Assembly: GCA_030167145.1 (NCBI GenBank)
Contig: CP126532.1
Coordinates: 450,001 to 482,000, forward strand
Reading direction: 5' to 3'
DNA: 32,000 bases
DNA from: Ktedonobacterales bacterium
GTDB lineage: Bacteria; Chloroflexota; Ktedonobacteria; Ktedonobacterales; JADMIN01
Made by a program: the position numbers and the translations under genes. Of this stretch, positions 3,242 through 30,271 are shown piece after piece. Every line of letters begins with the position of its first letter. The first letter of the stretch is position 1. The notes under the pieces are model-generated. The model worked only from the letters and a program-made list of their open reading frames with translations. It had not been told where the DNA came from and made no database searches.

Positions 3242-4021
3242 TCATGCGATGTTATATCGCTCTTTGACCTGCTGCTCCTTCTCACGCAGGCCCACGACAA
3301 GTGCGCGCGCTTGCGAGATGGCCGTGTCTAACTTGATCTGATTGGTGTTGGTAATCTCACCTATAGAGGCCTGCACATACTGCCCACCGCCAATGATCTC
3401 CTGGAATAGCCCCCGCAGGTCGTTCGCCAACCCCGCTCGCTCCCGCTCGGACATATGCACCACACTCGGAGCGGCGTTACCATTCGATACCGATGCTGAT
3501 GGTACTGTGGAATTCATTGTGGCTGCGCTCCCCGACACTTGATCAGCATCCACAACACGTTCGCCATGGTCAGCCCCTGGTTCAGGAAGCGCGTTCATTT
3601 TAGACTGACTGAGATCAGCCCTGATTGCCACAAGTTGCGGATTCGTATGGAGAAGCATATCGGCATACCGATCGAGCGCCTGGTCAAGCAGCGTAGCAAA
3701 GTTACTGACGGTGGCCAGCGCCATTGCTAACGGGAAAGGCTGGCGCGATTTCTTATCGGTCAGCAGCTTATCTTGCCGTGCGCTTTCCGCGATGATGGTT
3801 GCGAGGTTGTCGTGAAGACCGCGTGCAATGTTCTGTATCTGCACATCCGTATAACTACGGGCCGTATGCCCCCCACGAAGCAGTTCTGCGCTTGCTGCCG
3901 CTGCTACCGCCAGCAGCGTCAAGCCCGGTTTCATCACATTTTGCCTGGTTGCGTCGGCTATCTTATCGCGCCTGAAGCGTCCGAACAGACCTCCGCTCTT
4001 GTCTGACGACTTGTTGCTCAT
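3242..4021 (-). CDS. Hypothetical protein (259 aa), no recognisable motif
   Basis: ATG preceded by a very strong RBS (GAGGAGGAGGG). One hydrophobic segment (LTLLAVAAAASA), a Ser/Ala-rich low-complexity middle, and a helical C-terminus. Confidence 0.6.
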   Translation of the reverse strand: MSNKSSDKSGGLFGRFRRDKIADATRQNVMKPGLTLLAVAAAASAELLRGGHTARSYTDVQIQNIARGLHDNLATIIAESARQDKLLTDKKSRQPFPLAMALATVSNFATLLDQALDRYADMLLHTNPQLVAIRADLSQSKMNALPEPGADHGERVVDADQVSGSAATMNSTVPSASVSNGNAAPSVVHMSERERAGLANDLRGLFQEIIGGGQYVQASIGEITNTNQIKLDTAISQARALVVGLREKEQQVKERYNIA

Positions 4022-4456
4022 GAGAATTATCCCTCCTCCTCATCGGGAGTAAACCACTCGTCCGTTCCTACACTCTTCCCGCGTCTAGATCCGGCAACAT
4101 CGTCGGCAAACACGAGTGACTGCCCGCCAAGAACGGCGATTTCCCACTCAATAGCTACCCATCACCTGTAGTCCTCGTTGTGTACCTGTATTCTGTTCGG
4201 CGCCTTTGGATTAGGAGCATTACGAGCGCCTCACAAGCGGCTCCTCTTGCGCTCTAGCCAACACCATTCGTAGATCCGCCAGCAGGGTTATATCACATCA
4301 GCGGCCAGTGTTGCGAAGGAATACGGTTACCTGTTTACCTAATGCTGTGCGCGCGGTTCCAATCATCCAGCAAGGTGGGCGAGCAATGCTTCCGGCGCAC
4401 TGAGATGCCGCACAAATCAATTACAAAAAGCTGCTAGCTTGGTTCATATTCCCCCC

Positions 4457-4486
4457 TTGCGCCCAAGTCTGCGCATGTGCTATCAT
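4457..4486 (+). promoter_or_regulatory. Candidate sigma70-type promoter for tRNA-Ala
   Basis: TTGCGC, 18 nt, then TATCAT, about 40 nt upstream of the tRNA 5' end. Confidence 0.35.
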
Positions 4487-4527
4487 GGTGAAGCCGGTGC
4501 ATCGGGGAACTGGTGCGGCGGGCGTTT

Positions 4528-4603
4528 GGGCCTGTGGCGCAGCTGGGAGCGCGTCTGCATGGCATGCAGAAGGTCAGGGGTTCGAATCCCCTCAGGTCCA
4601 CCA
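4528..4603 (+). tRNA. tRNA-Ala (anticodon GGC), CCA encoded
   Basis: Hand-folded cloverleaf. The acceptor stem GGGCCTG/CAGGTCC contains the G3:U70 alanine identity pair. Anticodon loop is ATGGCAT, T-loop is TTCGAAT, and the 3' end is ACCA. Confidence 0.93.
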
Positions 4604-4625
4604 GCACAATCGCATCCACCATCCC

Positions 4626-4662
4626 GAAGCCTTTCTCCCCCTGCGGGCGAAAGGCTTTTTCA
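4626..4662 (+). terminator. Rho-independent terminator after tRNA-Ala
   Basis: GAAGCCTTTC, a loop, then GAAAGGCTT, followed by TTTTC. Confidence 0.5.
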
Positions 4663-4749
4663 TGTATCATCCCATATCGGACTTCCAGCCCATCAAAAGC
4701 CGCGCGAGCGGAAATCGGCAATCATCTACATCAGGGAGCGGACACTAGC

Positions 4750-7476
4750 ATGACACAGACGAAATATCAGCCCGCCGAAATCGAACCTAAGTGGCAATCC
4801 CGCTGGACCGAGGACGACCTCGCCTCTGCCCACGACACCGACCCGCGTCCGAAATATTACAACCTCGTCATGCTGCCCTATCCCTCCGGCGATCTGCACA
4901 TCGGCCATTGGTATAACTACACTGGCGCCGACGCCTACGGGCGCTTCACGCGTATGCGCGGCTACAACGTCATGCAACCTATCGGCTTCGACGCCTTTGG
5001 CCTCCCCGCCGAAAACGCCGCCATCAAGCGCAATATTCAACCGCGCTCGTGGACCCTCGACAACATCGCCAATATGCGTGGCCAGCTTGCCCGCATGGGC
5101 GCTGCCTGGGACTGGTCGCGCGAGGTTGTTAGCTGCCTGCCCGACTACTACACCTGGACCCAGTGGATCTTTCTCCAGTTCTATAAGCCTGGCCAGGCCT
5201 ATCGCACTAAAGCCCCAGCCAACTGGTGCCCCAACTGCAACACCACCCTCGCCAACGAGCAGGTCGTCAACGGCGTGTGCGAGCGGTGCGGAACCACCGT
5301 CGAGCGCCGCGAGATGGATCAGTGGCTGATGCGCATCACCGACTACGCCGACGAACTGTTGCGCTTCGATGGCCTCGACTGGCCCGAAAAAACCAGACTG
5401 ATGCAGACCAACTGGATTGGCCGCAGCGAGGGCGCCGAGATCCGCTTCAGAGCACGCATTCCCATAGCTGGCAACTCCGCACGTAAAAAACGAAAATCGG
5501 CAGAATCGGCAACTCCGGCAACTGCAACTTCTGAGAAATCGGCAGAATCGGCAACTGCATTTGCGGCCACATCGGCCACATCACCTGCCGTAAAATCGGC
5601 AGAATCGGCAACTGCCACATCCGTATCTGCGGTGAAAATGGCGAAATCGGCAGAATCGGCAACTTCCGCAACTGCACTTCCCGTAAAATCGGCAGAATCG
5701 GCAACTGCATACGAACAAGTCGAGATACCCGTCTTCACTACCCGGCCTGACACCATCTATGGCGTCACTTTCTTTGTCCTTGCCCCAGAGCATCCACTGG
5801 TCGAGCGCCTCACCGCACCTGAGCAACGTGAGGCCGTGCAGGCATACATCGAACAGACCCGGCGCGAGACCGAAATCGAACGCCTCAGCACCGAGAAAGA
5901 CCGCAAGAAAACCGGCGTCCCGCTGGGTACAACCGTCATCAATCCCGTCACCGGCACACCCGTGCCCGTCTGGATCGCCGATTATGTGCTCATGAGCTAT
6001 GGCTCTGGTGCGGTCATGGGTGTTCCCGCGCACGACCAGCGCGACTTCGAGTTTGCCCGCACGTTCGGCCTCCCGATCATCGAGGTCATCCGCCCAGAAG
6101 ATGAACCCGCCAGCGACGCCAGCACATGGGATGCGGCGAAAACGGCGAAGGGCATCATGGTCAACAGTGGCGCCTTCGACGGCACACCAGCCGCATCCGC
6201 ATCAGACACGGTCATTGCCTGGTGCGAGAAACACGGCGTTGGCAAGCGCGCCGTCACCTATCGCCTGCGCGACTGGCTCATCAGCCGCCAACGCTACTGG
6301 GGTGCGCCAATCCCCATCGTCTACTGTCCGGAACACGGCGCGGTCCCGGTCCCCGAGGACCAGCTTCCCGTCATGCTGCCCGACGAGGTACAGTTCAAGC
6401 CGACAGGCGAGTCGCCACTGCGCTACGTGCCCGAATTCCTGCACACCACCTGCCCAATCTGCGGCGGCCCTGCCACGCGCGAGACCGACACGATGGACAC
6501 GTTCATCTGCTCATCCTGGTATTTCCTGCGCTACGCCGATCCGCAGAACGCTCATGCCGCCTGGGATGCGAAGAAGATCGCTCACTGGCTGCCAGTAGAT
6601 ATGTACATCGGTGGCGCGGAGCATGCCACCATGCACCTGCTCTACGCGCGCTACTTCGTCAAAGCGCTGCGCGACATGGGGCTGCTCGCCATGAGCGAGC
6701 CGTTCACACGACTCTACCATCAGGGCACAGTCCTTGGCCCCGACGGCGTCAAGATGTCCAAATCGCGCGGCAATGTCATCGCGCCTGATGCGGTCGTCGG
6801 CGAATATGGCGCGGACGCCGTGCGCTGCTACCTCATGTTCATGGGGCCATTTGACCAGGGCGGCCCCTGGAACAGCCAGAGCATCGAAGGTGTCCGGCGC
6901 TATCTGCACCGTGTCTGGTCGCTCGTCGCCGACTACAACGCAGCGAATAACGGCAAAAACGGCAACCGCGAACGCGAAGGCGGCGACGCCATCGAACGCT
7001 TGCGCCACAAGACCATTGCGCGCCTCACTGAGGACTACGCCAACCTGCGCTTCAATACCGCTCTTGCCGGCCTCATGGAATACGTCAACGGACTCAACGA
7101 TGCCCGCGTCCAGTCGCCTGACCTGCTCCATGATCCGCGCTTCAGCGCAGCCATCGAGACGCTGCTCATCCTGCTCGCGCCTCTGGCCCCACACATCACC
7201 GAAGAATTGTGGCATCAGTGCGGCCACAACGAGAGCATTCATCTCCAGTCCTGGCCGGACTACGACCGCACACTTACGATGGATGAGATCGTCACGCTCA
7301 TCGTCCAGGTCAACGGCAAGGTCCGCGACAAGCTCGAAGTCGCCGCGGCTATGGACGCTGACACTGTGCGCACGCTTGTCCTGGCCAGTCCGAAAGTCCA
7401 GGCAGCCATCGAAGGCAGCCCTCTGAAAAAGTTCATCTACGTCGCCGACCGTCACCTCGCCAATCTCGTCATCTGA
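4750..7476 (+). CDS. leuS: Leucine--tRNA ligase carrying an unusual repeat insertion
   Basis: Starts MTQTKYQPAEIEPKWQSRW. Has the HIGH motif (PSGDLHIGH), KMSKS (VKMSKSRGN), the Zn module CPNC...CERC, and the CP1 entry TTRPDT. The track ORF starts at 4513 but would read through tRNA-Ala, so I prefer the ATG at 4750. Confidence 0.93.
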   Translation: MTQTKYQPAEIEPKWQSRWTEDDLASAHDTDPRPKYYNLVMLPYPSGDLHIGHWYNYTGADAYGRFTRMRGYNVMQPIGFDAFGLPAENAAIKRNIQPRSWTLDNIANMRGQLARMGAAWDWSREVVSCLPDYYTWTQWIFLQFYKPGQAYRTKAPANWCPNCNTTLANEQVVNGVCERCGTTVERREMDQWLMRITDYADELLRFDGLDWPEKTRLMQTNWIGRSEGAEIRFRARIPIAGNSARKKRKSAESATPATATSEKSAESATAFAATSATSPAVKSAESATATSVSAVKMAKSAESATSATALPVKSAESATAYEQVEIPVFTTRPDTIYGVTFFVLAPEHPLVERLTAPEQREAVQAYIEQTRRETEIERLSTEKDRKKTGVPLGTTVINPVTGTPVPVWIADYVLMSYGSGAVMGVPAHDQRDFEFARTFGLPIIEVIRPEDEPASDASTWDAAKTAKGIMVNSGAFDGTPAASASDTVIAWCEKHGVGKRAVTYRLRDWLISRQRYWGAPIPIVYCPEHGAVPVPEDQLPVMLPDEVQFKPTGESPLRYVPEFLHTTCPICGGPATRETDTMDTFICSSWYFLRYADPQNAHAAWDAKKIAHWLPVDMYIGGAEHATMHLLYARYFVKALRDMGLLAMSEPFTRLYHQGTVLGPDGVKMSKSRGNVIAPDAVVGEYGADAVRCYLMFMGPFDQGGPWNSQSIEGVRRYLHRVWSLVADYNAANNGKNGNREREGGDAIERLRHKTIARLTEDYANLRFNTALAGLMEYVNGLNDARVQSPDLLHDPRFSAAIETLLILLAPLAPHITEELWHQCGHNESIHLQSWPDYDRTLTMDEIVTLIVQVNGKVRDKLEVAAAMDADTVRTLVLASPKVQAAIEGSPLKKFIYVADRHLANLVI
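5494..5706 (+). repeat. Five identical 21-nt direct repeats (AAATCGGCAGAATCGGCAACT) inside leuS
   Basis: Copies lie at 5494-5514, 5536-5556, 5593-5613, 5644-5664 and 5686-5706. Spacers are 21, 36, 30 and 21 nt, all multiples of 3. Each copy encodes KSAESAT, and each unit is itself an AATCGGCA duplication. Confidence 0.9.
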
Positions 7477-12055: not shown

Positions 12056-13936
12056 TCAGGTAATCGCAAGTCTGAGATCACCCAAGGCTCGCTCGATGTC
12101 GTTTCGCAGTCTTGTCGCCTCGCGGTGGCGTGCTGGATCATTCTCTACTGTGTAAAAGGTGAGCGCAGCAAGCACGGCGGAACGCGAATCGAGAAAGTGC
12201 ATGGATGCGGTTTCGACATCGCCCATATAAAAGGCGTCGGCGCCGCGCTGCTGGGAAATGAGGGCCATCTGATGTTGCGCAAGCGCCCAATGCGCTGGCG
12301 CGACACGCTCAGTCAGAATCGTCGTGGCCACGCGATATGCCGCGAGTGCTTGGCGCCGAAAATCGGCGCGCAAGATCCCCTCCGTTACGTTCGCGCGGTT
12401 GGCAAGTGTGCGGCCAAGGTCAAGCTGGGTCATTGCCCATGCAATCGGCATGGTCTCCTGCGAGCAAACTTCCAGAGCAGTGCGAAGGCTGAGTACCGCC
12501 ATTTCTTTGTCAATGCGTGGATTGTAGGACAGAAATGGCCCAACCCCCTTCACGAGATCGGTAAACGCATTGCCCAACGCAACGAGCGCATAATGATCTT
12601 TTTGCCGCTCTAGCACCTCGAAGAGTGCGGGCCAATCGTCACTTGACTCCGCATTTGGTGAAAGGTAGTCAGGTATCGATTGGTCCAGATAAGCGGTGTA
12701 TACCGGTTTTAGTGTGCGGTTATTTAAGTCTCCGGGCAGCGGTTCTATTCTTACGAAACCAGCTTCGATGAGCGTTGCACATGCCTTCTCCCACTGTGTT
12801 GGCGCTAGAGCGAAGAGCCGCATGGCCAGCGGTCGCACGCGCCATACCGGGTAAGAATAGATGTGCGCGGATCGCAGCAATCTGAGCGCGTGGAGTATCC
12901 GCTGCGCGTCTTCGGTCAGCCTTGGATACTGTGTCCGGCGCATCTGAAGGATGCGAAGCAGCAGCGACCCGGGCGTACCGTCAAACTCCTCAAGGAGCGA
13001 GTCAACACCAGCTTTGCCAAGCGCCGCAACAAGCTGTGCCGCTTGCTCGGCTGAGATATTCGTGAGGTGAATGGATGTCAAACGTTCGAGAAGACCAGCG
13101 AGGCGCGCACATGCTACACTCTGAGCGTTTCGGCACGTCGCCACGATCACCAGCGGAATCCCCACTGCCGCGAATCGCTGTGGCAGGTCACATAATGTGG
13201 CGGCAACAGTTGGTGTGGCATATTCATGGGCATCATCCAGCCATAGCACCACATGCCGCCCGCGCAGCATTGAGAGATCGAGCGGCAGCCGTGGCTCCTG
13301 TGGCCACTTCAGCAATGTCCACCCTGGCAGCGCCACACGAAGCGCCTCCCACGCAAGCCGCGTCTTTCCTTGCGCTGCACGTCCGTAGACACATATCCCC
13401 AGGGGAGACTTCAGAGATTGTTTGCCGCGACTGGCCGCGATGCGCAAAGCTTGTTCCGCGACTACGCGGGCATCCTTTTGGCTCGCGCGCTCGACTCTCG
13501 CGAGAAAGACGGTGGGGACATAGAAGGGTACGAGTTCCTCTGGACGGACACGCCTGACTCTTAGCAACCCATATTGCGTCGCAAGCCTTCTGCGCCTTTG
13601 GAGTTGCCAGTAGATCGCGGCGATCACGACATACCATGTAACCGCGATCGCCACCGCGACCACGGTTGCTGGTGGAAACGGATAGGTACGCACCGCTTGC
13701 CATATGGGCCATGTCCGTGGATTGAGGAGAATAGACGTGCCGCCACGGGCATATGCAGAGTATCCCCCTATCGCCAACAGCCCCAAAGTAGCAAGCACCC
13801 AATACCATCGCAGAGCATCCCAGAGCGATGCAAGTGATGCCATCGCCCATTCACGTGCCAGGCGCCGGTGAACCTGTGTATCGTCGTCTTCTGGGACACA
13901 ATCTTCTACCGGATGGGGGCGCACATGTCGCGGCAT
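12056..13936 (-). CDS. Membrane-anchored P-loop NTPase (STAND / ORC-Cdc6-like) with a C-terminal helical-repeat region
   Basis: Two N-terminal hydrophobic helices (WYWVLATLGLLAIGG and VVAVAIAVTWYVVIAAIY). Walker A is GRAAQGKT and Walker B is VVLWLDDAHE. A ~300-aa alpha-helical, TPR-like tail follows. An RBS-like GGGAG precedes the ATG. Confidence 0.7.
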   Translation of the reverse strand: MPRHVRPHPVEDCVPEDDDTQVHRRLAREWAMASLASLWDALRWYWVLATLGLLAIGGYSAYARGGTSILLNPRTWPIWQAVRTYPFPPATVVAVAIAVTWYVVIAAIYWQLQRRRRLATQYGLLRVRRVRPEELVPFYVPTVFLARVERASQKDARVVAEQALRIAASRGKQSLKSPLGICVYGRAAQGKTRLAWEALRVALPGWTLLKWPQEPRLPLDLSMLRGRHVVLWLDDAHEYATPTVAATLCDLPQRFAAVGIPLVIVATCRNAQSVACARLAGLLERLTSIHLTNISAEQAAQLVAALGKAGVDSLLEEFDGTPGSLLLRILQMRRTQYPRLTEDAQRILHALRLLRSAHIYSYPVWRVRPLAMRLFALAPTQWEKACATLIEAGFVRIEPLPGDLNNRTLKPVYTAYLDQSIPDYLSPNAESSDDWPALFEVLERQKDHYALVALGNAFTDLVKGVGPFLSYNPRIDKEMAVLSLRTALEVCSQETMPIAWAMTQLDLGRTLANRANVTEGILRADFRRQALAAYRVATTILTERVAPAHWALAQHQMALISQQRGADAFYMGDVETASMHFLDSRSAVLAALTFYTVENDPARHREATRLRNDIERALGDLRLAIT

Positions 13937-17708: not shown

Positions 17709-18365
17709 CTATCGCAGCCCTTCCGTTGCTTGCCCAAGCGAGCGATACACAGCAGTGACGATGCCATGGACTTGCCATTCGCGGGTCCAATCACGCCGTC
17801 GAATGTAGATGGGATCCATTGTAGGATTCGCTGGTTGCAAACGCACACGCTTCCGCTCGGATTCAGAATAAAATCGCTTGATAGTGGCGGCACCGAGATC
17901 GCCATTGCCTGTAAGCTGGACAGCAACAACGATGTCACCATTACGGATGTCTGCTTTAACAGGCCTGACCAGAACATAATCGCCATCAAAAATGCGCTCA
18001 TCAATCATCGAATCGCCGTGGACACGCAAAGCGAACTGCTCATTGGGGTCGCGCAGGTGAACGGCGACATCCAAACACATCTGCTCGCCCGGCTCAAACA
18101 ACGCCAGTGGTTCGCCTGCGGCAATTTCACCAAGTATTGGGATTCCAGGTTGGCGAAGAAGTCGAATGCCACGAGCCCTGTTCGGATCTCGTTCAATGAG
18201 GCCCTGCTCAACGAGCTTATCGAGATAGTAGACGACATTGCTTGGAGATTTGAGCCGCGCCGCCAAGCCAATCTCGCGAATGGTGGGTAATCTGCCATCG
18301 CGACGTGCGCACTCTTCGATGAAGTGGAGTATCGCTTCTTGCCGTAGGGCTGATCTCTGGTTCAT
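17709..18365 (-). CDS. lexA: LexA repressor
   Basis: N-terminal winged helix (LPTIREIGLAARLKSPSNVVYYLDKL), the Ala-Gly cleavage site (EIAAGEP), catalytic Ser (HGDSM) and Lys (TIKRF). Confidence 0.92.
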   Translation of the reverse strand: MNQRSALRQEAILHFIEECARRDGRLPTIREIGLAARLKSPSNVVYYLDKLVEQGLIERDPNRARGIRLLRQPGIPILGEIAAGEPLALFEPGEQMCLDVAVHLRDPNEQFALRVHGDSMIDERIFDGDYVLVRPVKADIRNGDIVVAVQLTGNGDLGAATIKRFYSESERKRVRLQPANPTMDPIYIRRRDWTREWQVHGIVTAVYRSLGQATEGLR

Positions 18366-18412: not shown

Positions 18413-18424
18413 GAACTAATGTTC
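18413..18424. promoter_or_regulatory. LexA operator (SOS / Cheo-type box) at the lexA promoter
   Basis: GAACTAATGTTC has the form GAAC-N4-GTTC and lies 2 nt downstream of the lexA -10. A degenerate neighbour, AGAAC-N5-ATTCT (minus-strand reading), follows immediately. Confidence 0.75.
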
Positions 18425-28150: not shown

Positions 28151-28891
28151 CTAGCTCGCGCGCCGTGCCCGCTGATATTCGCCGCTCAGTTGGGTAAGCA
28201 GTTCGCGTGCCTGCGCATAGCTCAGATCGCCCACTGGCTCCGGTTTACCGAGCGCTTCGCAGAGCTTGTGGATGCTTGTCACCTGCTTTTCCGTCGCGCG
28301 TGGCTCCTCGCCAACCAACTCGGTGGCTGGGGTCTCGCGCAGCACTCGCGCCTGCATTTCGCGATCGAGGCCTGTATTTGGCTTGATCACTCCGGTACCA
28401 GTGGGTTTGGGTAACTTTGCCCTCAGTTCACGCAGGACCGCATCCGGAATCCGCCCGTTCTTTTCAACTGATACCCAATTCATCGGTAGATTATACAGAT
28501 ACCGACCAATGCCCCAATGCACCGCCGCACGCTTGAAGCAATGTGATACGGCTCCTAGGGTCTGCTCGAAGTTGCTTGCCGATCCAGCATCAGACTTCGA
28601 CACACCCATTATGGTGAGGGTACCCTTCGCGACCATCACCTCGCCTTTATCAATCACTAGCGGTATCCAGTCAAAAGACCAGTTTCCCGCACCTACAACC
28701 TCGTCCAATCGATCCTGTACAGCACGGGCATCAATGTAGGCAACAACTTGTGCCCTGCCTGTCTGTTCGTTCGCCCTGCCCTGTACACGAAAATCCACTT
28801 CGGTTGGATCGAATGGCTCTTGGAGACGTTGGGAAATGTTGTTCCATTCGTCTCTGTTCAATATTTCCATCTTCATGTCCAAACCATTCAT
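28151..28891 (-). CDS. Rad52/Rad22-family (DdrA-like) ssDNA-binding/annealing protein with a C-terminal extension
   Basis: LQEPFDP..V.FR, AYIDARAVQDRLDEVVG.GNWSF, KGTLTI.GVSK.D.G and KRAAV.WGIGRYLYNLP match the Rad52-family N-terminal domain pattern. GGAGGT RBS. Confidence 0.75.
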   Translation of the reverse strand: MNGLDMKMEILNRDEWNNISQRLQEPFDPTEVDFRVQGRANEQTGRAQVVAYIDARAVQDRLDEVVGAGNWSFDWIPLVIDKGEVMVAKGTLTIMGVSKSDAGSASNFEQTLGAVSHCFKRAAVHWGIGRYLYNLPMNWVSVEKNGRIPDAVLRELRAKLPKPTGTGVIKPNTGLDREMQARVLRETPATELVGEEPRATEKQVTSIHKLCEALGKPEPVGDLSYAQARELLTQLSGEYQRARRAS

Positions 28892-28979
28892 CTACTACCT
28901 CCAATAGGTGACTGGACAGTGACAACATTCTAATCGTCGCAAGACCTTTCTTTCCGAAACAGCTAGAACCGGACGAAAT

Positions 28980-28997
28980 ATAGAACCTAGGTTCTAT
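28980..28997. promoter_or_regulatory. Predicted LexA operator: perfect 18-bp palindrome
   Basis: ATAGAACCTAGGTTCTAT has the core AGAAC-N4-GTTCT, the same core as the box at lexA in this window. It sits in the divergent intergenic region. Confidence 0.7.
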
Positions 28998-29024
28998 GAT
29001 CATACTGTAGTCTCGTCCGATCAA
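28996..29024 (-). promoter_or_regulatory. Candidate promoter of the Rad52-like gene, abutting the LexA box
   Basis: On the minus strand: TTGATC (29024-29019), 17 nt, then GATCAT (29001-28996), with the box immediately downstream. Confidence 0.4.
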
Positions 29025-29197
29025 GCTGATATCTGATACAAACTAATTTACTGAGTTTCCAACGAAATGAGGAAAAGAGACCCCCGAATCTCCTTTCGAG
29101 CGGAATAGGGCCTTAGAGCATCTTGATTTGATAAGGCCTCAGGTGCATATACTAGCTCTACAGCCGAGTAATACAGTGCTCAACTGGAGAAGATGCG

Positions 29198-30271
29198 ATG
29201 ACAAAGGTCGTACTCCGACGTGGTATAGGCGACAGCATTCTCATTGAATTCCCATATGACGCAGTACTAGTATCCAAGGTCAAGACATTGCCGGGAAGAA
29301 TTTGGCTTCCAGAACAGAGAGTATGGAGCGTTCCCAGTAACGAGAACCCTTTATCAAAGCTGCGGAATCTCTTCCAAGGGCATACCGTAGAAGTAGCAGC
29401 AGATCTAACCCCCGAAATAACGGAGATGATCAGACGAGATATTATCGACTATTTGATTCTGCTGCCTTCGCCATTTCATGGCCGACTCGAAATTACCCAG
29501 TTTCTCTCGCGAATCTGGGACCTTTCTGCCATGCCATCTACAGATGGACGTTTTCACAACGCGGAGGGGGACATATGGCAACACATGGTGAACAACCAGG
29601 ATTGGGATGAGGCCTATCTCCTCTACAAGTACATGGAAGTACTGCGCTGCGATACTGTCACATTTCTGAAGTTTCTTGAAGAGTGCGTGCATCCAATTGT
29701 GCGTCCCGATGAGGCGCAGAGTGCCAGCGTTGTGGCGGCACTCAATGATATGCTCGCGGCAGACGGATACCGTTTGGGAGTACAACAACTCATCTCCGGG
29801 AAGCCTGTCTACAAATGCTTCCTAATTCCTGATAACGCTCAAGAAACGGCGAGTGATGGACCATATGATGTAGTTCTCTCGTATGCAGGCGAAGAAGAAG
29901 AATACGTAACTCGAGTAGCTCAATTTCTACAGGTCCGGGGTATTCGTGTGTTCTTCGCACCCAATAAGGAGCACGAAATATGGGGAAAGGACTTGACTGA
30001 GTATTTGGATCAAATCTATCGCGGTGATGCCAAATTCTGCGTCATGTTCATTTCGCAGAATTACGCTGCAAAAGTTTGGCCAACCCATGAAAGGCGTAGC
30101 GCGCTTGCGAAGGCGGTAAGCGCAAAGGAAGAGTATTTACTCCCTGCGCGATTCGACGATACAGCGATCCCGGGATTATCGCCTTCCATTGCCTACATTG
30201 ACCTGCGCAAGAAGACGCCCGAAGAGCTAGGCGACATCATCCTCCGCAAACTAGGAAAAAGAAGTTACTAA
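29198..30271 (+). CDS. Three-module protein: HARP-like N-terminal domain, unknown helical domain, C-terminal TIR domain
   Basis: GGAGAAG RBS with a 5-nt spacer. TIR hallmarks run from about aa 222: YDVVLSYAGEEEE, IRVFF, FCVMFISQNYAAKVWPTHE (Glu298), LLPARFDD. The N-terminus SILIEFPYDAVLVSKVKTLPGRIWLPEQRVWSVP fits the HARP-type pattern. The gene is visibly more AT-rich than its neighbours. Confidence 0.8.
   Translation: MTKVVLRRGIGDSILIEFPYDAVLVSKVKTLPGRIWLPEQRVWSVPSNENPLSKLRNLFQGHTVEVAADLTPEITEMIRRDIIDYLILLPSPFHGRLEITQFLSRIWDLSAMPSTDGRFHNAEGDIWQHMVNNQDWDEAYLLYKYMEVLRCDTVTFLKFLEECVHPIVRPDEAQSASVVAALNDMLAADGYRLGVQQLISGKPVYKCFLIPDNAQETASDGPYDVVLSYAGEEEEYVTRVAQFLQVRGIRVFFAPNKEHEIWGKDLTEYLDQIYRGDAKFCVMFISQNYAAKVWPTHERRSALAKAVSAKEEYLLPARFDDTAIPGLSPSIAYIDLRKKTPEELGDIILRKLGKRSY

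Follow-up and report, generated by a model that had tools for sequence, protein, structure and literature searches.

The open reading frame at positions 29198..30271 of the 32-kb stretch of DNA analysed here (the window) is complete, lies on the forward strand and encodes a protein of 357 aa, with exactly the length and limits given in an earlier note on this DNA. It appears in the ORF list, matched 499 homologs in a homolog search and is modelled by AlphaFold2 with a mean pLDDT of 88.9. The protein consists of a HARP-like N-terminal module, an AbiJ_NTD3 domain and a C-terminal TIR domain. All the motifs quoted in the earlier note could be located in it: SILIEFPYDAVLVSKVKTLPGRIWLPEQRVWSVP corresponds to aa 13-46, YDVVLSYAGEEEE to aa 223-235, FCVMFISQNYAAKVW to aa 280-294 and LLPARFDD to aa 314-321. 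The GC content of the gene is 0.488, compared with 0.573 for the window. Downstream lies a 2-oxoacid dehydrogenase E2 gene. On the other side, a 306-bp intergenic region (28892..29197, GC 0.44) separates the gene from a divergent gene for a Rad52/Erf-family ssDNA-annealing protein (28151..28891, reverse strand). With the rad52-like and E2 genes as neighbours, there is no adjacent Thoeris, CBASS, Pycsar, SIR2, STING or Argonaute partner, as had been noted before. Membership in Thoeris, CBASS or SPARTA was ruled out because the partner genes are missing; with SPARTA and the short pAgo systems the protein has only the TIR fold in common, and no APAZ or Ago gene is present in the neighbourhood.

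The public gene call for the same gene (P0001) has 281 aa, starting at M77 and omitting the N-terminal 76 aa. The JGI calls for P0001, from the genome itself, and for P0026 both start at the downstream Met. If these calls were correct, the N-terminal extension would be an artefact of ORF calling and the true protein an ordinary 281-aa NTD3-TIR protein beginning at M77. This is almost certainly not the case. First, the translation of the 72 upstream codons is conserved across nine clusters, which are 32-46% identical here, and Y20, G33, R34, W36 and W43 are invariant across the N-terminal modules of these clusters. Second, the module has a confident predicted fold and thousands of homologs. Third, a GGAG ribosome-binding site, read directly from the sequence (29186..29189, forward strand), lies 8 nt 5′ of the ATG at 29198 and speaks for the longer protein. 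The in-frame conservation in the nine orthologous clusters and the GGAG before the ATG therefore argue strongly that the N-terminal 76 aa are real coding sequence; the idea of an untranslated N-terminus was dismissed in view of the conservation at the protein level. The HARP-like module is clipped routinely by gene callers, and the architecture is thereby hidden.

The AbiJ_NTD3-TIR core

The C-terminal TIR domain (aa 222-342, 29861..30223, forward strand), already recognized in the earlier note, is supported by both profile and fold. Pfam TIR_2 matches with 66 bits (E = 4.3e-18, cut-off 28 bits), and Foldseek matches the domain to AbTir (7uxu; TM 0.81, rmsd 2.5 Å), with further matches to BtpA and SPARTA TIR-APAZ. 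E298 (codon 30089..30091, forward strand) is the predicted catalytic glutamate of an NADase site. This residue stands in the sequence WPTHE, four residues after a conserved Trp (motif W294-x3-E298), and, at the position for which it had been proposed, aligns with the glutamate that is catalytic in AbTir, BtpA/TcpB and Roq1. Its conservation extends over 63 family members, and it is invariant or nearly so in the family. The TIR domain is predicted to have NADase activity. An inter-domain linker (aa 211-221, 29828..29860, forward strand), whose pLDDT falls below 50 at aa 217-219, precedes the domain. A match to SEFIR (E = 0.025, below cut-off), a family that we take to be TIR-related, was set aside as an overlapping, weaker match.

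The middle segment (aa 73-210, 29414..29827, forward strand), for which only a general likeness to Abi proteins and no family name had been offered, is Pfam AbiJ_NTD3 (PF18860; E = 6.5e-50; 169.3 bits, cut-off 32.5 bits; positions 1-138 of the 167 in the profile). It is presumably a sensor or regulatory module, and contains the very strongly conserved motif WDLSxMPSTDxRFxxAxGDIWQHMxNNxDW. Given the TIR_2 and AbiJ_NTD3 E-values and the 499 homologs, the domain features of the protein are far beyond chance. In other proteins, NTD3 is found N-terminal to other effectors, namely Abi_C HEPN, Shedu SduA, an AAA ATPase and a kinase. Fusions of NTD3 to varied effectors have been described, among them the fusion to TIR, which was already listed by Anantharaman et al. 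2013 (PMC3710099), and NTD3 is present in 510 of the 2,815 Abi_C proteins (PMC13590631). Judging from these domain orders, NTD3 is a swappable N-terminal module ahead of conflict effectors.

NTD3-TIR forms of ~285 aa number in the hundreds and are spread across bacterial and archaeal phyla; their hosts include Bacillota, Zixibacteria, Omnitrophota, Acidobacteriota, Methanocellales and Methanoperedens (50-59% identity). Two members of this core family (L104 and L105) directly follow type I HsdR, another (L098) lies between AbiEii and AbiEi, and a fourth (L096) adjoins a DUF1156 methylase and an HNH protein. Thus, the NTD3-TIR core is widespread, laterally spread and usually found in defence contexts. 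No experimental work on any AbiJ_NTD3-TIR protein was found in the literature searched, and it is the gene context and the domain logic that point to a defence role. Two PADLOC candidates match the protein in part, at the level of single domains only. For PDC-S66 the match covers the TIR (aa 211-316; E = 5e-13); for PDC-M01A it covers positions 34-142 of the 639 in the profile and, in the protein, aa 99-206 of NTD3 (E = 3e-14). A scan of genome contigs with the single protein gave no matches, and a pattern search of genome contigs with the subclade alignment retrieved HARP-less relatives only.

TIR domains with the same catalytic Glu yield cADPR isomers in Thoeris. The TIR protein described here weakly resembles ThsB (E = 0.0023) and retron-type RT-TIR in profile comparisons, and it is conceivable that its TIR domain produces a signalling nucleotide for an effector whose gene lies elsewhere in the genome, instead of being itself the killing NADase. 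We consider this very unlikely. Gene lists or screens of ~150 loci revealed no adjacent ThsA, SLOG, SIR2 or Macro gene; the NTD3-TIR family disseminates as a single gene; and elsewhere NTD3 is paired with directly toxic effectors such as HEPN domains and nucleases.

The N-terminal HARP-like module

The first 72 aa (29198..29413, forward strand) have the predicted fold order strand-strand-helix-strand-strand-helix-strand, with the conserved residues Y20, G33, R34, W36 and W43. Their likeness to HARP modules had been claimed from residue spacing, and profile, transitive and fold evidence now agree with that claim. Pfam HARP (PF07443) matches 6 of the 8 clade members, with a best E of 5e-6. The N-terminus of the protein itself scores under the gathering cut-off of 25 bits (13.2 bits with the full protein, 16.6 bits with aa 1-76); though below the cut-off, HARP is its sole or top Pfam family match. 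When a clade profile was compared with PDB sequences, the top match was 4o66, the HARP domain of SMARCAL1, with which the module shares conserved Y, K, P, R and W residues. In an exhaustive profile search, the subclade profile retrieved bona fide HARP-SNF2-Helicase_C proteins at E <= 1e-17, and in P0161, P0198, P0210 and P0223 Pfam HARP covers the same residues as the clade profile. For comparison, seven sampled SNF2 helicases have Pfam HARP scores of 27.6-49.5 bits, and P0223 has one of 24.5 bits. Foldseek against the PDB also has 4o66 as its top match, followed by the XPB N-terminal domain (prob 0.93-0.96; all E > 0.01), and against a viral library it returned phage HepA-related and SMARCAL1-like proteins (E 8e-5 to 1e-3, TM 0.59-0.76), with E values of 8e-5 to 3e-4 for the HepA-related ones. 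Judged by profiles and predicted fold, aa 1-72 are a genuine HARP-superfamily module. As the protein and its neighbours have no SNF2 or helicase domain, a SMARCAL1-type annealing helicase was rejected.

In SMARCAL1-type motors, the small HARP-type domain allows recognition of forked or ss/ds-junction DNA. Mason et al. in 2014 are said to have placed HARP, XPB, MutS and UvsW in a fold class for structure-specific DNA recognition. By analogy, the module described here may be a putative sensor of DNA junctions. The search for HARP-like modules gave 3,248 representative proteins, many of which are tyrosine recombinases, and HARP-like modules are probably far more common in prokaryotes than present annotation suggests. 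No paper linking HARP domains to tyrosine recombinases was found in the literature searched. The closest sequence relatives of aa 1-72 are in these recombinases (~30-45% identity); the best-scoring ones form 1-4 tandem N-terminal modules ahead of Phage_int_SAM_4 and Phage_integrase. The N-terminal module could accordingly be derived from an integrase and serve as a sequence-specific, arm-type DNA-binding or a protein-protein module, which would anchor the NTD3-TIR core, bring several copies of it together or aim it at a particular mobile element. The pLDDT of the module, 94-97 within the full-length model versus 82.6 when modelled alone, is compatible with packing against NTD3. Nevertheless, the same profile also matches HARP-SNF2 helicases, the residues in common with SMARCAL1 HARP are conserved, and the fold class of HARP and the XPB N-terminal domain is reportedly one of structure-specific DNA recognition. 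An integrase-type role in place of DNA-structure sensing is, in our opinion, distinctly unlikely. It may be mentioned that the recombinase-borne modules might bind ordinary duplex sites, not junctions, which counts against the junction-sensor reading.

The combination of HARP and NTD3-TIR was found in nine protein clusters only, all from metagenomes or MAGs, and the HARP-bearing fusions form a single clade in the neighbour-joining tree. The core family lacks the module in 80 loci from metagenomes and 57 from genomes. All interpretable HARP-bearing contexts show either Ktedonobacterales-type synteny or an adjoining rad52 ortholog of this order. The new element is therefore the HARP addition only, since the remaining two thirds of the protein (NTD3-TIR) are already described and widespread. 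The earlier statement that the architecture matches no described system thus holds for the HARP fusion, which is unreported, and not for NTD3-TIR, listed in PMC3710099.

The Rad52/Erf-type neighbour and the hotspot

The divergent neighbour matches Pfam Rad52_Rad22 (E = 5.8e-13) and PHROG 1097 'Erf-like SSAP' (E = 9e-33), and found no match among PDB sequences with phmmer. A divergent rad52-like gene adjoins every HARP-bearing locus with enough DNA (the window, L001, L002/L003, L085, L087 and L094/L095), and none of the 137 HARP-less family loci has one nearby (0/137). This conserved adjacency may indicate a functional module of two genes. In such a module, the TIR protein would monitor intermediates of annealing or recombination that the host SSAP makes or that compete with it or, alternatively, would guard the SSAP from phage interference; the NADase would fire on abnormalities, possibly within the SOS response. 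There are several data consistent with this. First, the adjacency persists in L001 and L002 despite altered flanks on both sides. Second, the divergence of the Rad52-like and the TIR proteins is correlated (r = 0.68). Third, a LexA box lies in the intergenic region common to the two genes. Finally, escape mutants against lactococcal AbiJ map to a phage ssDNA-annealing protein (PMC13064643). The last report is kept as a lead only: among 53 NTD3-carrying plasmid records no Lactococcus record was prominent, so that lactococcal AbiJ may or may not have this domain.

On the other hand, the rad52-like gene is far more widespread in Ktedonobacterales than HARP-TIR: its top 120 clusters are 54-84% identical, versus nine HARP-TIR clusters. 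In L093 the slot beside it is empty, and in L089 and L092 unrelated genes of defence type fill it. The interpretable HARP loci have one ancestry and a wider synteny in common, so the adjacency in each of them is not independent evidence. The LexA box, too, is found 5′ of rad52 where the TIR gene is absent. This box, GAAC-N4-GTTC, is part of a perfect 18-bp palindrome, ATAGAACCTAGGTTCTAT (28980..28997), which was missed by the inverted-repeat search and found by a pattern search. The palindrome is 92 bp away from the start codon of rad52 and 203 bp away from that of the TIR gene. Only two exact LexA-type sites are present in the 32 kb (0.25 expected), the other being upstream of lexA itself. 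The box recurs upstream of rad52 orthologs, and most of the rad52-adjacent HARP loci carry it in the intergenic region. It lies just 3′ of a -10-like element in the direction of rad52, as at lexA, and most likely controls rad52. Since its geometry fits the rad52 promoter direction, control of the TIR gene by the box was downgraded. A scan of the intergenic region found no sigma-70 promoter; by eye, a weak TTGATT-19-TATACT can be seen at 29123-29153, and it is not relied on.

In sister genomes, the slot on the rad52 side contains a PD-Lambda-3_B HEPN, a restriction-endonuclease-fold-like protein, or nothing, and in the Rad52 tree loci that carry the TIR gene are mixed with loci that lack it. 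The low GC of the gene relative to the window is a further point in favour of a hotspot. The gene therefore sits in a small defence hotspot between the LexA-controlled rad52/erf-like gene and the housekeeping E2 gene. Given a rad52-like gene that is common in the order, a box placed to suit rad52 and a slot of variable content, the adjacency most likely represents an inherited position at this hotspot. Of the tie to a neighbouring DNA-binding protein hinted at in the earlier note, the conserved adjacency stands, whereas inheritance at the hotspot fits better than a partnership, and the Rad52-like protein is probably not a functional partner of the TIR protein. With a variable slot and a rad52 gene widespread in the order, the pairing was no longer considered proof of a two-gene system, and we find such a system unlikely. 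No link between TIR and Rad52 in defence was found in the literature searched. Even so, the hotspot does not account completely for the strict co-occurrence of HARP and a rad52 neighbour. Less likely still than a two-gene system in general is a specific form of it, in which HARP-NTD3-TIR would be a TIR sensor of fork or annealing-junction DNA that forms a surveillance pair with the SOS-inducible Rad52/Erf neighbour. That the NADase fires once the recombination machinery of a phage, or what it produces, disturbs or imitates single-strand annealing in the host is to be doubted to the same degree. If such a pair existed, it would also show which cue the N-terminal sensor domains of the AbiJ type respond to.

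Although the proteins have diverged deeply, to 45-53% identity, the gene has not moved from its chromosomal position, in a region that is otherwise housekeeping and has no mobile-element genes. Defence genes are less typically fixed in this way, and a role in physiology or one linked to DNA damage may also be considered.

Possible mode of action and related systems

TIR NADases have a central part in the immunity of bacteria, plants and animals. We lean, by a small measure, towards the view that the protein is a single-chain anti-phage NADase of the abortive-infection type to which a DNA-structure-binding module has been added. The TIR domain (aa 222-342) would be the effector, hydrolysing NAD+ once several copies self-associate, and NTD3 (aa 73-210) the conserved sensor or regulator that restrains it until an infection cue is met. 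The HARP module (aa 1-72) may dock the protein on branched or junction DNA arising from phage replication or recombination. This docking could raise the local concentration or give NTD3 a second input, and would be followed by TIR-TIR assembly and then by depletion of NAD+. The module was probably added once, exactly where the core begins at its N-terminal end, in one lineage of soil bacteria within the Ktedonobacterales (Chloroflexota), and its source was probably the large pool of HARP-like modules that tyrosine recombinases and SNF2 helicases carry. With nine clusters the variant is rare, its core family is known, and all statements about its function are ones we infer. In a sense, however, this natural variant offers a concrete and cheap hypothesis on how infection may be sensed, with DNA forks or junctions as the ligand, and the full-length, M77-start and E298A forms are ready-made for comparison.

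The closest known relatives are the AbiJ_NTD3-TIR proteins of ~285 aa, which have the same domain order and the same Glu as aa 73-357 of the present protein and are 50-59% identical to this part. They have no HARP module, never lie beside a rad52-like gene and reside in classic defence islands, whereas the present gene has both the module and the neighbour and lies in a housekeeping region. The lactococcal-type AbiJ and Abi_C HEPN proteins with NTD3 follow the same single-gene Abi logic, with the same NTD3 ahead of a toxic effector; their effector is a HEPN RNase, and here it would be the TIR, as the protein has no HEPN or Abi_C match. The SMARCAL1/HARP annealing helicases and the prokaryotic HARP-SNF2 proteins are homologous to the N-terminal module by profile and fold, but in the SMARCAL1 type it accompanies an SNF2 motor, and here it is joined to an immune effector instead. 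In tyrosine recombinases, 1-4 tandem HARP-like copies precede the recombinase, compared with a single copy before NTD3-TIR. ThsB of Thoeris is likewise a bacterial TIR protein with a catalytic Glu (weak HMM similarity, E = 0.0023), but Thoeris has a ThsA partner, missing here, and a different N-terminal architecture. Finally, SPARTA and other nucleic-acid-triggered TIR NADases have a similar TIR fold. As an analogy only, SPARTA follows the course proposed here, from nucleic-acid recognition to TIR assembly and loss of NAD+. SPARTA relies on a guide-directed Argonaute and APAZ, whereas the present protein has neither, and what it recognizes would be the structure of the DNA.

Reading frame and domains of the TIR protein

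The open reading frame at 29198-30271 (+) encodes 357 aa, exactly as the earlier note had placed it, and all the motifs quoted there are found. The public gene call for the same genome (P0001) starts at M77 and yields 281 aa; we therefore checked whether the 76 residues ahead of it are genuine. They are coding sequence, because they are conserved in frame in 8 full-length homologs (Y20, G33, R34, W36 and W43 invariant), GGAG lies 8 nt 5′ of the ATG at 29198, and the structure model gives this segment a confident predicted fold. An annotation artefact, in which the extension has no reality, is hardly credible. The gene call of a ninth homolog (P0026, locus L094) is clipped in like manner. Since public calls cut off the HARP module (window 29198-29425; L094:2699-2887 in the 290-aa P0026), the three-domain architecture is hidden in databases.

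The TIR domain that the earlier note saw at the C-terminus spans aa 222-342; it is matched by Pfam TIR_2 at aa 225-342 (E 4.3e-18), and the AlphaFold2 model of the protein (pLDDT 88.9) superposes on AbTir (TM 0.81, rmsd 2.5 Å), with BtpA and SPARTA TIR-APAZ also matched. In HMMER alignments, E298 (codon 30089-30091) pairs with the glutamate of AbTir, BtpA/TcpB and Roq1 that we take to be catalytic, and it is kept across 63 family members. The middle domain (aa 73-210, window 29414-29827), which that note likened to N-terminal regions of Abi-like proteins, is indeed Pfam AbiJ_NTD3 (E 6.5e-50); a fold search against the PDB gave no match for it among the top 50. Its conservation is unusually high, bacterial and archaeal members being 53-58% identical to the window protein (family alignment A3). 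It also carries a dense polar motif, WDLSxMPSTDxRFxxAxGDIWQHMxNNxDW, hinting at a conserved pocket for a ligand or partner.

The window's own aa 1-72 score below the Pfam HARP cut-off (13-17 bits versus 25). HARP is the top Pfam family in six of the eight clade members (best E 5e-6), and the clade profile's top match among PDB sequences is 4o66, the crystal structure of the SMARCAL1 HARP. The module model also has its best structural PDB match in 4o66, followed by the N-terminal domain of XPB helicases. Its matches in a viral structure library are significant (E 8e-5 to 3e-4, TM up to 0.76, rmsd ~2 Å) and include a phage 'HepA-related protein' and a 73-aa SMARCAL1-like protein. From the profile, PDB and viral-library matches we accept aa 1-72 as a HARP-superfamily module, in agreement with the earlier HARP-like reading. 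An annealing helicase identity is ruled out, because the protein has no SNF2 motor.

When 1.84 billion representatives were searched exhaustively with the clade profile (HMMER), 3,248 proteins were retrieved. The matches sampled fall into two groups: tyrosine recombinases that carry 1-4 copies of the module at the N-terminus, and HARP-SNF2-Helicase_C helicases. The Pfam HARP model is above its own cut-off in seven sampled helicases, and in P0161, P0198, P0210 and P0223 it aligns to the residues that the clade profile also hits. It is rather improbable that the module is an integrase-type duplex-binding or protein-binding tether.

Many tyrosine recombinases with Phage_int_SAM_4 and Phage_integrase domains begin with 1-4 tandem modules (P0126, P0127, P0129, P0133, P0135, P0139, P0193, P0209, P0253 and others). 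These HARP-like regions have no Pfam match above cut-off, and a literature search found no paper on such modules in tyrosine recombinases. P0164 (1112 aa) has 16 matched HARP-like stretches and zero Pfam domains.

Distribution of the core family and the HARP form

The AbiJ_NTD3-TIR core family comprises 499 matches, mostly ~285 aa, spanning residues ~74-357 at 50-59% identity, in Bacillota, Zixibacteria, Omnitrophota, Acidobacteriota, Eremiobacterota, Methanocellales, Methanoperedens and others. Of five long genome loci sampled for HARP-less members, four are defence contexts: directly after type I HsdR (L104, L105), between AbiEii and AbiEi (L098), and next to a DUF1156 methylase with an HNH nuclease (L096). 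Plasmid-borne NTD3 stands ahead of Abi_C, Shedu SduA, AAA ATPase and kinase genes. In the plasmid matches H12, H19-H21 (Streptomyces), H14 and H22, AbiJ_NTD3 is joined to nuclease domains of the Shedu SduA type, to AAA ATPases and to a protein kinase.

The HARP-bearing form comprises nine protein clusters in one clade of the neighbour-joining tree, and is absent from the 80 metagenome and 57 species-representative genome loci of the core family. The HARP/NTD3 junction is the exact start of the short proteins (…ISEVTRR…). All three domain assignments of the earlier note stand; the novelty is narrower than it suggested, since AbiJ-NTD3 fusions to TIR, HEPN, REase, ABC ATPase and kinase domains were listed by Anantharaman et al. 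2013 (PMC3710099), who proposed a phage-sensing role for these NTDs. Literature searches turned up no experiments on NTD3-TIR proteins. With HARP added, the protein is a novel and rare variant, confined to one clade, of a family that is known from computational description and experimentally unstudied.

The rad52-like neighbour and its LexA box

The contig is 5.07 Mb long, and the rest of the window is housekeeping (PPDK, LeuRS, LspA, pseudouridine synthase, dipeptidase, LexA, dCMP deaminase, GNAT, oxidoreductase and E2, identified by domain matches, some by synteny). The GC content is 0.488 in the TIR gene versus 0.573 in the window. Two long ORFs, 3242-4021 (-, 259 aa) and 12056-13936 (-, 626 aa), lack any Pfam match at E <= 1e-4.

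Upstream of the TIR gene and divergent from it lies a Rad52/Erf-family annealing-protein gene (28151-28891, -; Pfam E 5.8e-13, PHROG 'Erf-like SSAP' E 9e-33). Such a gene lies next to the TIR gene at all HARP-bearing loci whose DNA reaches far enough (window, L001, L002/L003, L085, L087, L094/L095) and at none of the HARP-less loci (80 metagenome, 57 genome). It is also widespread on Ktedonobacterales chromosomes, and the contents of the slot between it and the E2 gene turn over between sister genomes. The slot is empty in L093 (6468-7000), and in L090 it holds an acetyltransferase. In L092 (5858-6687, -) it holds a PD-Lambda-3_B/Ymh HEPN gene (PADLOC E 1e-66) split into 61-aa and 229-aa ORFs, perhaps a frameshift or pseudogene, and in L089 (372-1124, -) a low-GC 251-aa protein with restriction-endonuclease-like motifs by eye and no Pfam or PADLOC match. 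In a tree of Rad52 proteins, loci that have the TIR gene are scattered among those that lack it; Rad52 and TIR divergences are correlated (r = 0.68). The scattered pattern, the variable slot and the wide occurrence of rad52 fit a long-standing cassette, repeatedly replaced, at a hotspot for defence genes; the data do not show an obligate two-gene system. A real partnership of the TIR protein with the Rad52-like SSAP is unlikely, though some functional coupling may exist. The mutations of phages that overcome lactococcal AbiJ have been mapped to the phage SSAP (PMC13064643); this is a lead only, and among the NTD3-carrying plasmids no Lactococcus record was prominent. In the syntenic relative L001, a 749-aa Lon-like protein (3893-6142, +; LonB AAA, LID and Lon_C domains; no PADLOC match) is inserted beside rad52 and may be another hotspot cargo.

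The rad52/TIR intergenic region contains a perfect 18-bp palindrome, ATAGAACCTAGGTTCTAT, with GAAC-N4-GTTC inside it. There are two exact sites in 32 kb (0.25 expected), the second 48 bp upstream of lexA (17709-18365, -), whose identity is confirmed by LexA_DNA_bind and Peptidase_S24 matches. The GAACTAATGTTC box of lexA itself (18413-18424) immediately follows a near-consensus promoter that reads leftward, TTGACG-17-TATAAT, and defines GAAC-N4-GTTC as the predicted SOS box of this Ktedonobacterales genome. Exact or one-mismatch boxes lie upstream of rad52 orthologs whether the TIR gene is present or absent, and the intergenic box comes straight after a -10-like hexamer that reads towards rad52, the same arrangement as for lexA; thus rad52 is probably SOS-inducible. 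LexA is only a putative regulator of the TIR gene, which starts 203 bp from the box. In Ktedonobacterales the Rad52/Erf-family gene usually has a LexA box on its promoter (L089, L090, L092 and L093 examined besides the window), and this apparently SOS-inducible host annealing protein may deserve study by itself.

Proposed action and known systems

For function as a whole we infer, with a modest preference over the alternatives, a single-chain Abi-type NADase; a signalling TIR with a remote effector is very unlikely. NTD3 would sense an infection cue and thereby release TIR self-association. The clade-specific HARP module may bind the branches or junctions in DNA that arise when phages replicate or recombine, which would provide localisation or a second input. 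The HARP variant offers a clean, testable handle on infection sensing by NTD3-TIR proteins. By model superposition, the window protein has the TIR fold in common with AbTir, BtpA and SPARTA TIR-APAZ. Its aa 1-72 resemble the HARP structure of SMARCAL1, but the SNF2 motor of that protein is absent.
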